The position numbers are program-made. A DNA stretch of 64,000 nucleotides, from the NCBI RefSeq assembly GCF_055900595.2, contig NZ_CM148325.1, one strand, 5' to 3'. Below, in pieces: positions 29,401 through 32,400 of the stretch. Numbering within the stretch: position 1 is the first letter of the stretch; every line of letters begins with the position of its first letter.

Positions 29401-32400
29401 GCATGAAATTGACGCTGAAAAACCTTAGCATGGCGATCATGATGAGTGGAATGATCATGGGAAGCAGTGCAATGGCGGCGGATAGCAACGAAAAAATAGT
29501 CATCGCCCATCGCGGTGCCAGTGGATATTTACCGGAGCATACGCTGCCAGCAAAAGCGATGGCTTATGCGCAGGGAGCGGATTATCTGGAACAGGATTTG
29601 GTGATGACGAAGGATGATCATCTGGTCGTTCTGCATGACCACTATCTTGACCGGGTAACCGATGTCGCCGATCGTTTCCCGGATCGGGCGCGTAAAGATG
29701 GCCGTTACTACGCGATAGATTTTACGCTGGATGAAATTAAGTCTTTGAAATTTACGGAAGGCTTCGATATTGAAAACGGTAAAAAAGTGCAGACTTTCCC
29801 CGGACGTTTCCCGATGGGTAAATCTGACTTCCGGGTGCACACCTTTGAAGAAGAGATTGAATTTGTTCAGGGGCTAAACCATTCGACCGGGAAAAATATT
29901 GGTATCTATCCAGAAATTAAAGCGCCGTGGTTCCACCATCAGGAAGGGAAGGATATTGCGGCAAAAACGCTGGAAGTGCTGAAGAAATATGGTTACCTCG
30001 GTAAGGACGACAAAGTTTATTTGCAATGTTTTGATGCTGATGAGCTGAAACGCATTAAAAATGAGCTGGAACCGAAAATGGGCATGGACCTCAATCTTGT
30101 ACAGCTGATTGCCTATACCGACTGGAACGAAACGCAGCAGAAACAGCCGGACGGAAGCTGGGTTAATTACAGCTATGACTGGATGTTCAAGCCGGGCGCC
30201 ATGAAACAGGTAGCGGAATATGCTGATGGCATTGGTCCGGATTACCATATGGTGATTGAGGAGACATCGCAGCCGGGTAATATCAAGCTTACCGGAATGG
30301 TAAAAGATGCACAGCAGAATAAGCTGGTGGTGCATCCTTATACCGTGCGGTCAGATAAGCTGCCTGAATACACTACTGATGTGAATCAGTTATATGATGC
30401 TCTGTATAACAAAGCGGGTGTAAATGGGCTGTTTACTGATTTCCCTGATAAGGCAGTAAAATTCCTTAATAAAGAGTAATGCTACTGCAGGATGGCGTTC
30501 ATGCGCCATCCTCTGCTAAAGCGAAATAATGCTACTACCGGTTATTCTTTTCATTAACGGGTGCATCCTGTAAAAAGATGCCAACATAATTTTCGTAAAA
30601 CTCATTCGTTAAAAAAGCTAACACTGGGCATTGTTATTCTTTAAACAGTATGAATAGGTCTCAATAATAAATTGTAATGCAGTTTATACTGTAAAGTATT
30701 ATTCGAATTTCGGAAAGGTAAAGAAAATATTAATGTATCTTATTAATTTATCATATTGTTCTTGGGTGAATGCTGTTTGCACACCTTCAGGGCAATATTT
30801 ACCAGTAATAACCAGTTGTCCATTGCTGTGTTGTACCATTAAACCTTCTTTTTCCTTTGGATCTACAAAATTAGAATTATCAAATGTGAAGATATTTTTT
30901 TCCTGTTTTGAGTAAGCAAAGAAATCTCGTGTATAGCTGAAACTATCATTTATTAATGGTGCTAACTTTTTGTCGGCGATATCGATAAGCTCACCACTTA
31001 ATTTATTGATGTATTTCATTTGCTTCAATTTTTTCTGCGCTTGCACAATTTGCTTGTAGGTATTTTCAATTTTTTTAGAAGAATTCTTAAATACATCATA
31101 GCGTTCCTCGGAGGATGTGTATTTGTACCATTCTGTATTTTTCTCAGAATGTTGTAGCAGGTCTGTATATTCTTTTTGCTTGCTGTAAAGTTGAGTTCTT
31201 ATATTTAACTCGTGGATAAATTTATAAATTTTGTCAGAGTTGGTTATTTTTGGTGTGTCTTTGTCTGTCAATGTTTGGATCTTGTTATTGATATTTTCTT
31301 TTGCAACATGCTCATTGATGATGTTAATTGCAGTTTCATATTCATTTAAATTTATTGTTCTTTGTGAAAGAAACCCTTCTTTGCTTTCGATACTCAAAAC
31401 ACCTTCGTTGTTTTCACCTCGGGTAAAGGTAAGGATATAGGGTTCATAATCTTCTGCAAATTCATTTTTATACGTTATGACATGCTCGAAAAAATGTCTT
31501 ATTGGTACGAAACCATAACTGTGAACGTCAATTTTTTTGGTCTTGACACTATCAATTTCATCTGAGGCTTTCGTGAAAAAAGCCAATAAATTAGCTATGT
31601 TGTCTGCTGAGGTTGATAACCCGAATCTACTTTGAGATATTTTTAGAAACTCATTGCAAAAAATCTCAAGTTTCGCGGTTTGTTGTGATTCTTTGTAAAT
31701 TTCTGCTGTTTGCAATTTATTATTTTGTAAAATATTACAGCGAGATAATTGAATAGATGTATTTGGCATAAATGATTCCTTGTATTGTGAGTTAACAAGA
31801 TACAATTTAATCTTTGCAGAATATATTCACTATCAAATTTAGCTCATTTTATTACGAAGACCTTTACGCATGTTAGAAAGTATCATTATTGTTAATAAAT
31901 ACGGTAATAAGTAACAAACAGATATTGATAACTTCCCTGACTAGTTATTAGGTATCCCACTTGAAGATTGAGAATGGCTCCAGAGTAAACTGTGTACTGT
32001 TCGCCGGAGTGTCATTACTCTCAACAATCGGTTTTGACAGTGAGTCGGGCGCTTCATACCGGTTTCTACCTGGAGTCATTGTCACTTCTCCCAACTGAAT
32101 AAATATATATCGCCAATTCACAAAGTGGGCCAAAATCAGGTGAAAACGAATTATTACGCCTGGTAAAGGCTATAGTACAACTAAGTGTGGCGAATCAGGC
32201 AGTCTTGCATTTGTCATCAATCTCATGTCTTACATCAAATTTTTCCACTCACCACGAGTTGTTCCGTACACGTTTGTAGTAAAAACAGTGGACTGCCTTC
32301 TACCGACTTTTCTTTAGCCAGCAACGAAATCTGTCGATAGAAGGTTGGTTCGAGAGGAACGGAACACAATTCACCTGCAATGGTTTTCAGCGTTAACTCT

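Follow-up and report, generated by a model that had tools for sequence, protein, structure and literature searches.

An A+T-rich islet carrying an orphan gene in the glpQ-inaA gap of Escherichia coli

AT-rich xenogeneic DNA is the usual target of H-NS, and the closest described counterparts of the locus reported here are the AT-rich, lineage-restricted genes without homologues (ORFans) of enterobacteria. The locus is an islet of 1,714 bp (30513..32226) with about 33% guanine plus cytosine (G+C), found in a stretch of 64,000 nucleotides of E. coli DNA (contig NZ_CM148325.1 of RefSeq assembly GCF_055900595.2; hereafter the window). Situated after the glpQ terminator hairpin and short of the yfaH/LysR stop codon, it carries one long open reading frame (ORF), referred to below as the orphan gene. 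The islet resembles the enterobacterial ORFans in its low G+C, lack of homologues, fast evolution, patchy distribution and inactivation, but the orphan gene is long, at 356 amino acids, and no donor, phage or plasmid copy of it was found. As in H-NS-silenced xenogeneic DNA, its composition departs strongly from the surroundings: the segment 30513-32222, at 32.9% G+C, is the minimum among all 1.7-kb windows of the 64 kb, whose mean is 51.3% (standard deviation 4.3%). Like the single-gene anti-phage systems of PADLOC-DB, it has one accessory gene standing alone in an insertion of low G+C, but it has neither a model match nor a defence or mobile-element neighbourhood. It also differs from the cargo of transposons, insertion sequences (IS), integrons and prophages, having no terminal repeats, tRNA or recombinase at its borders and no phage or IMG/VR copy, and from toxin-antitoxin modules, because no tightly coupled pair is present: the sole candidate partner is a 43-codon ORF 178 nt away, and neither protein matches any family. 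Unlike the type III effectors of attaching-effacing E. coli, the orphan protein has no Pfam or NCBIfam family match. The adjacent segment encoding a LysR regulator and a major facilitator superfamily (MFS) transporter is likewise strain-variable in the glpQ-inaA gap, and K-12 retains only the yfaH remnant of it; however, it is a separate indel whose genes belong to ordinary families and have been linked to a phenotype in print, whereas neither is true of the orphan gene.

We consider it somewhat more probable than its competitors taken together that the islet is old and compositionally foreign, and that the orphan gene is a dispensable, weakly selected, fast-evolving and slowly decaying gene restricted to E. 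coli and belonging to no recognisable system. The extent of the islet is indicated by empty-site comparison, composition and presence counts, and its borders were set against K-12-like empty sites (L002, L019) with a precision of ±1 nt. The sequence-only reading of this DNA had placed a low-GC island at 30517-32230, within 4 nt of this result, and the fall in composition that it described is borne out by 300-bp windows of 29-35% G+C between about 30500 and 32000, flanked by genes at 46% (glpQ), 49% (inaA) and 54% (glpT). The orphan ORF itself has 31.5% G+C overall and 30% at third codon positions. The absence of the gene from the K-12 locus, which had likewise been claimed, was also found: in MG1655 the order is inaA, the yfaH pseudogene, a gap of 41 bp and glpQ, with neither the islet nor the orphan gene. 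On the left, the islet is bordered by the final base of the glpQ terminator hairpin (30490-30511); on the right, 8 nt separate its border from the stop codon (32235-32237) of yfaH, a LysR-type gene. Microhomology at the junctions amounts to no more than one exact base (TCCT versus TCAT), and junction, repeat and tRNA checks revealed neither target-site duplications nor terminal inverted repeats, and no gene for a tRNA, an integrase or a recombinase at the islet. Judging from these borders, the islet may have originated by illegitimate recombination.

The orphan gene (30699..31769, minus strand) was delimited by the ORF list, comparison with strain 133, the annotation of O157:H7 Sakai and the population analysis, and it has the 356-codon length, the strand and the ribosome-binding site AAGGAA that the first inspection had assigned to it. 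Its frame is open from the ATG over 356 codons (alleles of 1,071 nt), whereas the other two minus-strand frames contain 21 and 39 stops over the same span; at 31.5% G+C, a frame of this length is therefore not due to chance. The Shine-Dalgarno-like AAGGAA (31776..31781, minus strand), read directly from the sequence, is located 6 nt 5' of the ATG at 31769, and the four sequences of alignment A1 all conserve its surroundings. The product has a mass of about 42 kDa, is rich in K, I, E and N, and carries a net charge of about -1. Its Kyte-Doolittle maximum over 19 residues is only 0.63 and therefore, as had been proposed, no signal peptide or membrane segment is present; the product is predicted to be a soluble protein. 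Comparison of the neighbourhood annotations of Sakai, strain 133 and 10 further strains identifies the gene as the annotated hypothetical protein ECs_3123 of Sakai, which is catalogued and unstudied: the strain 133 comparison on which this identity is based gave 84% identity over 356/356 residues without gaps, and other clusters are 84-96% identical. The feature was thus not previously undescribed, as had been supposed, but already annotated, and 1,045 of the 5,426 complete genomes of E. coli contain the gene (~19%).

Relatives of the orphan protein were sought widely. Outside E. coli, none was found among 1.84 billion cluster representatives (standing for ~15 billion proteins), of which a full HMMER scan yielded only fragments of the same gene, and a word-indexed search of 5.8 billion clusters returned E. 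coli proteins only, all at least 82% identical. There was no match in Pfam at E <= 10, in PHROGs, or in the PDB by either sequence or profile, and no family of PADLOC-DB 2.0 matched at E <= 1; the sole match in NCBIfam was a 14-bit chance hit to a nicotinamide mononucleotide (NMN) adenylyltransferase/Nudix model. Searches of phage records by tblastn and of IMG/VR by a peptide-pattern scan returned no match, and the only hit among plasmid records (tblastn) was an E. coli entry of 4.9 Mb that is listed as a plasmid and is evidently a chromosome. Among the GTDB species representatives, an exact 41-mer invariant across alleles was matched only by a contig in a 'Collinsella sp.' metagenome-assembled genome (L017, JAIJJM010000334.1); this 3.5-kb contig is 100% identical to E. 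coli and was rejected as contamination. A 408-amino-acid metagenome protein (P0023), in which a nucleotidyltransferase (PF01467/PF05636) is fused to orphan residues 14-136, was judged a probable assembly chimera, being known from a single contig, and its coincidence with the weak NCBIfam hit was not used as evidence. Composition, absence from K-12 and the negative family searches together uphold the earlier view of an accessory foreign segment with an orphan gene lacking any recognisable domain.

The orphan gene is dispensable, because about 80% of strains lack it and because IS1 and frameshift knock-outs occur among its carriers. IS1 lies within the gene in 13 of 59 evenly sampled carriers (~22%), for example in strain YJ3 (L016); the disrupted copies have nearly identical spans (1,848-1,849 bp), which is consistent with the same insertion in all of them and probably reflects one widespread lineage. 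Twelve IS-free alleles were fetched, 10 of them intact and two frameshifted by a 1-nt insertion in an A-run, and nine distinct alleles were used in the substitution counts. These contained synonymous and non-synonymous changes in a ratio of 31:87, as expected under neutrality for every third of the gene, and the variable sites were spread evenly over codon positions. The ratio of non-synonymous to synonymous divergence (dN/dS; Nei-Gojobori, NG86) was 0.65-0.70 overall, with residues 1-160 giving about 1 and residues 213-356 giving 0.3-0.5, in comparison with 0.02-0.04 for glpQ. On the other hand, the segregating changes, at least 122 in number, included no nonsense change against an expectation of 6.3 (Poisson P about 0.002). 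From this deficit combined with the neutral proportions it follows that the frame is protected and the amino-acid sequence barely constrained; for a gene that is nearly unconstrained and often inactivated, an important hidden function is therefore less likely. In O157-type alleles, a -1 and a +1 indel at alignment columns 594 and 629 rewrite about 11 codons and restore the frame; the window allele does not have this pair.

The hypervariable central part of the gene (about residues 161-205; 31155..31290, minus strand) was recognised from columns 664-830 of alignment A1, the two indel columns, regional dN/dS and diversity; it tolerates both a recombinant patch and a frameshift followed by restoration. 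Here the window allele differs from the other alleles with a dS of 0.31 and a dN of 0.25, far above the rest of the gene, and the divergent patch of 156 nt is free of stops. Such a divergence therefore indicates recombination with a deeper-branching allele from outside the sample. Nucleotide diversity in the islet is 0.015-0.05, with a peak of 0.088 at 31195-31294 in the patch, which is of the same order as the overall diversity of glpQ and the flanks; the islet is therefore not a recent arrival. In strain A65EC the glpQ-LysR segment is highly divergent (87% identity) and yet the islet site is empty, for which reason insertion is mildly favoured over deletion as the origin of the islet.

Several observations weigh against an old islet with a barely constrained gene. 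At synonymous sites the orphan gene has diverged less (0.05-0.11) than glpQ (0.16-0.38), and either a later spread by recombination, competing with great age, or a slower change of AT-rich DNA would account for it. A neutral-looking dN/dS can also result from a mixture of purifying and diversifying selection, as is typical of conflict genes, and the sample of nine distinct alleles bounds omega only roughly, to 0.65-1.4. The conserved blocks at residues 80-123 and 266-299, together with an invariant HxxEH at residues 92-96, could represent a genuine active site or binding site. Finally, the literature yielded no expression, H-NS-binding or phenotype data on the orphan gene, and the K-12 H-NS data sets cannot cover the islet because K-12 lacks it.

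Among the other explanations, the one in which the orphan gene is a functionless relic, a once-useful foreign gene that now drifts and is open merely for lack of time, accounts for the neutral synonymous and non-synonymous proportions, the evenness over codon positions, a diversity in the gene equal to that of the adjacent non-coding DNA, the IS1 and frameshift alleles and the pseudogenisation of the LysR and MFS neighbours in the window. However, drift alone should have left about six nonsense changes among the nine distinct alleles (P about 0.002) and none is seen; moreover, the frameshift of the O157 lineage was compensated within 35 alignment columns and the divergent 156-nt patch stayed stop-free, so that we regard the relic as unlikely. 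A frame that stays open despite numerous amino-acid changes would instead be expected of a functional conflict gene, namely a new single-gene anti-phage defence, toxin-like or secreted host-interaction protein in which diversifying selection raises dN/dS. The hypervariable, recombining central patch and the patchy strain distribution point the same way, and the first 22 residues, with no acidic residue and 11 S, T, N or Q, resemble a type III secretion signal, a weak and non-specific criterion. Nevertheless, PADLOC, PHROG, Pfam and NCBIfam are all without a match, the neighbourhood of glpTQ, LysR, MFS and inaA genes is neither a defence island nor a mobile element, non-synonymous changes do not exceed the neutral expectation, and about one-fifth of the sampled carriers are disrupted by IS1. 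A conflict gene is thus rather unlikely, and the earlier suggestion of an anti-phage or toxin-like function finds no backing in a PADLOC match, a defence or mobile context or a tightly coupled partner gene. It is more doubtful still that the orphan gene, possibly with the 43-codon ORF, encodes an E. coli-specific conflict or host-interaction factor of novel fold, with a frame kept by selection and a diversifying surface and rod, or that it is a rare case in which the birth or remodelling of a long gene inside Escherichia can be traced.

Two more specific proposals can be weighed against single features of the locus. A partnership between the orphan gene and its LysR neighbour would fit their shared orientation, the position of the orphan gene 465 bp downstream of LysR with no terminator-like site between them, and the 711 genomes that carry the orphan gene together with LysR and MFS genes of intact length; yet the orphan gene and the LysR/MFS pair are independent, occurring in all four combinations, and in the window the regulator is a remnant and the orphan gene intact, which makes such a partnership very improbable. 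The HxxEH motif (31481-31495, minus strand) reads HFFEH or HFVEH, with H92, E95 and H96 invariant in 10 sequences, and it sits in the most conserved block of the protein (residues 80-123). The peptidase family M16 carries the signature HF[LC]EH[ML], and its third zinc ligand is a Glu about 70-77 residues further along the chain. The local HF[FV]EHV resembles that signature and accordingly suggests a small enzyme akin to zinc metallopeptidases, using H92-F-F/V-E95-H96 in the manner of the M16 inverzincins. However, the orphan protein matches no Pfam model at E <= 10 and no PDB sequence or profile, its position +77 falls in a variable linker with no conserved Glu there, and by our own estimate about 2% of proteins with such a length and composition would contain HxxEH by chance; we give the enzyme hardly any credence. 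For none of these rival readings does the positive evidence go beyond weak hints from motif or context.

If the orphan gene is, as we favour, a weakly selected accessory gene, its biology may be pictured as follows. Under ordinary growth the islet would be silenced by H-NS, as its G+C of 27-33% suggests, and the orphan gene would be transcribed from a promoter in the spacer of 27% G+C 5' of it, or by read-through from yfaH. Simple scans found no terminator-like sites in 30300-32700 and no promoter-like sites 5' of the orphan gene; the minus strand of the spacer (31770..31947) showed no sigma-70-like site in a consensus scan, and no Rfam match was obtained within 30300-32700. The protein probably consists of two small alpha/beta modules linked by a long helical, probably coiled-coil, rod. 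In the AlphaFold2 models, whose low confidence applies to all the elements given here, helices lie at residues 21-49, 55-75 and 141-158 with three strands within 112-140; further on come two long helices, 178-217 and 220-273, then a beta-hairpin (310-323) and a helix (336-350). The predicted secondary structure agrees between both runs, and a coiled-coil middle is plausible. The mean predicted local distance difference test (pLDDT) score was 41 at full length (10 alleles) and 43.7 for residues 1-165, and the models are therefore unusable for fold comparison. An internal repeat of the two strand-plus-helix modules was considered and set aside as not significant (E = 7). The protein would act, if at all, through binding rather than catalysis, probably as an accessory factor specific to certain niches.

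Read on the minus strand, the islet consists of a 147-bp stretch with 40% G+C (32080-32226), the 43-codon ORF (31948..32079), the spacer defined by its 27% G+C (31770..31947), the orphan gene and a non-coding 186 bp (30513-30698). The sequence-only reading had described a single ORF, which holds for the long one, but the conserved 43-codon ORF (MTPGRNRYEAPDSLSKPIVESNDTPANSTQFTLEPFSIFKWDT; 47% G+C, minus strand) also lies upstream, 178 nt from the orphan gene and with a Shine-Dalgarno-like GGGAG 5' of its start. It is intact in 12 of 12 alleles, four of its five substitutions fall at third positions (P about 0.045), and it has no annotation in RefSeq records. Its matches are in E. coli only and confined to the islet, and none was found in Pfam or NCBIfam. 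The last, non-coding 186 bp hold a diverged copy of the glpQ stop codon and terminator. The glpQ terminator hairpin, GGATGGCG-TTCATG-CGCCATCC (30490..30511, plus strand), is intact in filled and empty sites, as seen from the junction sequences. The stop codon and terminator (TAATGCTACT, the hairpin and then CATCCT) are present twice, at 30477-30515 and at 30527-30572. The second copy (30527..30572, plus strand), detected as direct repeat D3 and in the junctions, lies immediately within the left islet end and comprises TAATGCTACT, a hairpin and then CATCCTGT; its stem is different and still self-complementary. This diverged copy suggests that the islet is a fragment once located 3' of glpQ in some related lineage from outside the sample.

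The neighbours of the islet are glpT, glpQ, the LysR regulator, the MFS transporter and inaA. The remnant of the yfaH/LysR-type gene (32235..32483, minus strand) was recognised from the annotation of a matching strain, Sakai and a published account (PMC10819331). LysR and MFS genes occur together in 1,216 genomes. Strains such as LWY24 and A65EC have the LysR and MFS genes without the orphan gene, the window and other strains have the orphan gene with mere remnants of LysR and MFS, and some strains have lost everything from glpQ to inaA. From this independent presence and absence it follows that the islet is an indel separate from OI-97. A full 2-kb query was found in 1,044 genomes, and the allele type of the window is rare among carriers, with at least 95% DNA identity in 22 of 1,052 matching genomes.

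The orphan gene is a catalogued hypothetical gene, one among thousands in the E. coli accessory genome. It is at the same time an unusually clean ORFan: neither its 356-residue product nor that of the adjacent 43-codon ORF has a detectable relative in ~15 billion proteins, and its well-sampled alleles are usable for studies on the origin and decay of orphan genes. In many genomes it is concealed by an annotation artefact that affects most intact alleles: the RefSeq annotation calls intact 1,071-nt alleles 'frameshifted' pseudogenes (L001, L005, L006, L008, L011, L012 and L014). Intact alleles, that of the window included, receive this label because the NCBI reference WP_001301786.1 is the O157 allele with its two compensating indels.

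When the window is compared with strain 133, divergence at synonymous sites is 0.38 for glpQ, 0.20 for inaA and 0.18 for glpT (28040-33307), and only 0.05-0.10 for yfaE, nrdB and nrdA (33360-37176). The diversity of core genes has a local peak around the variable glpQ-inaA gap.

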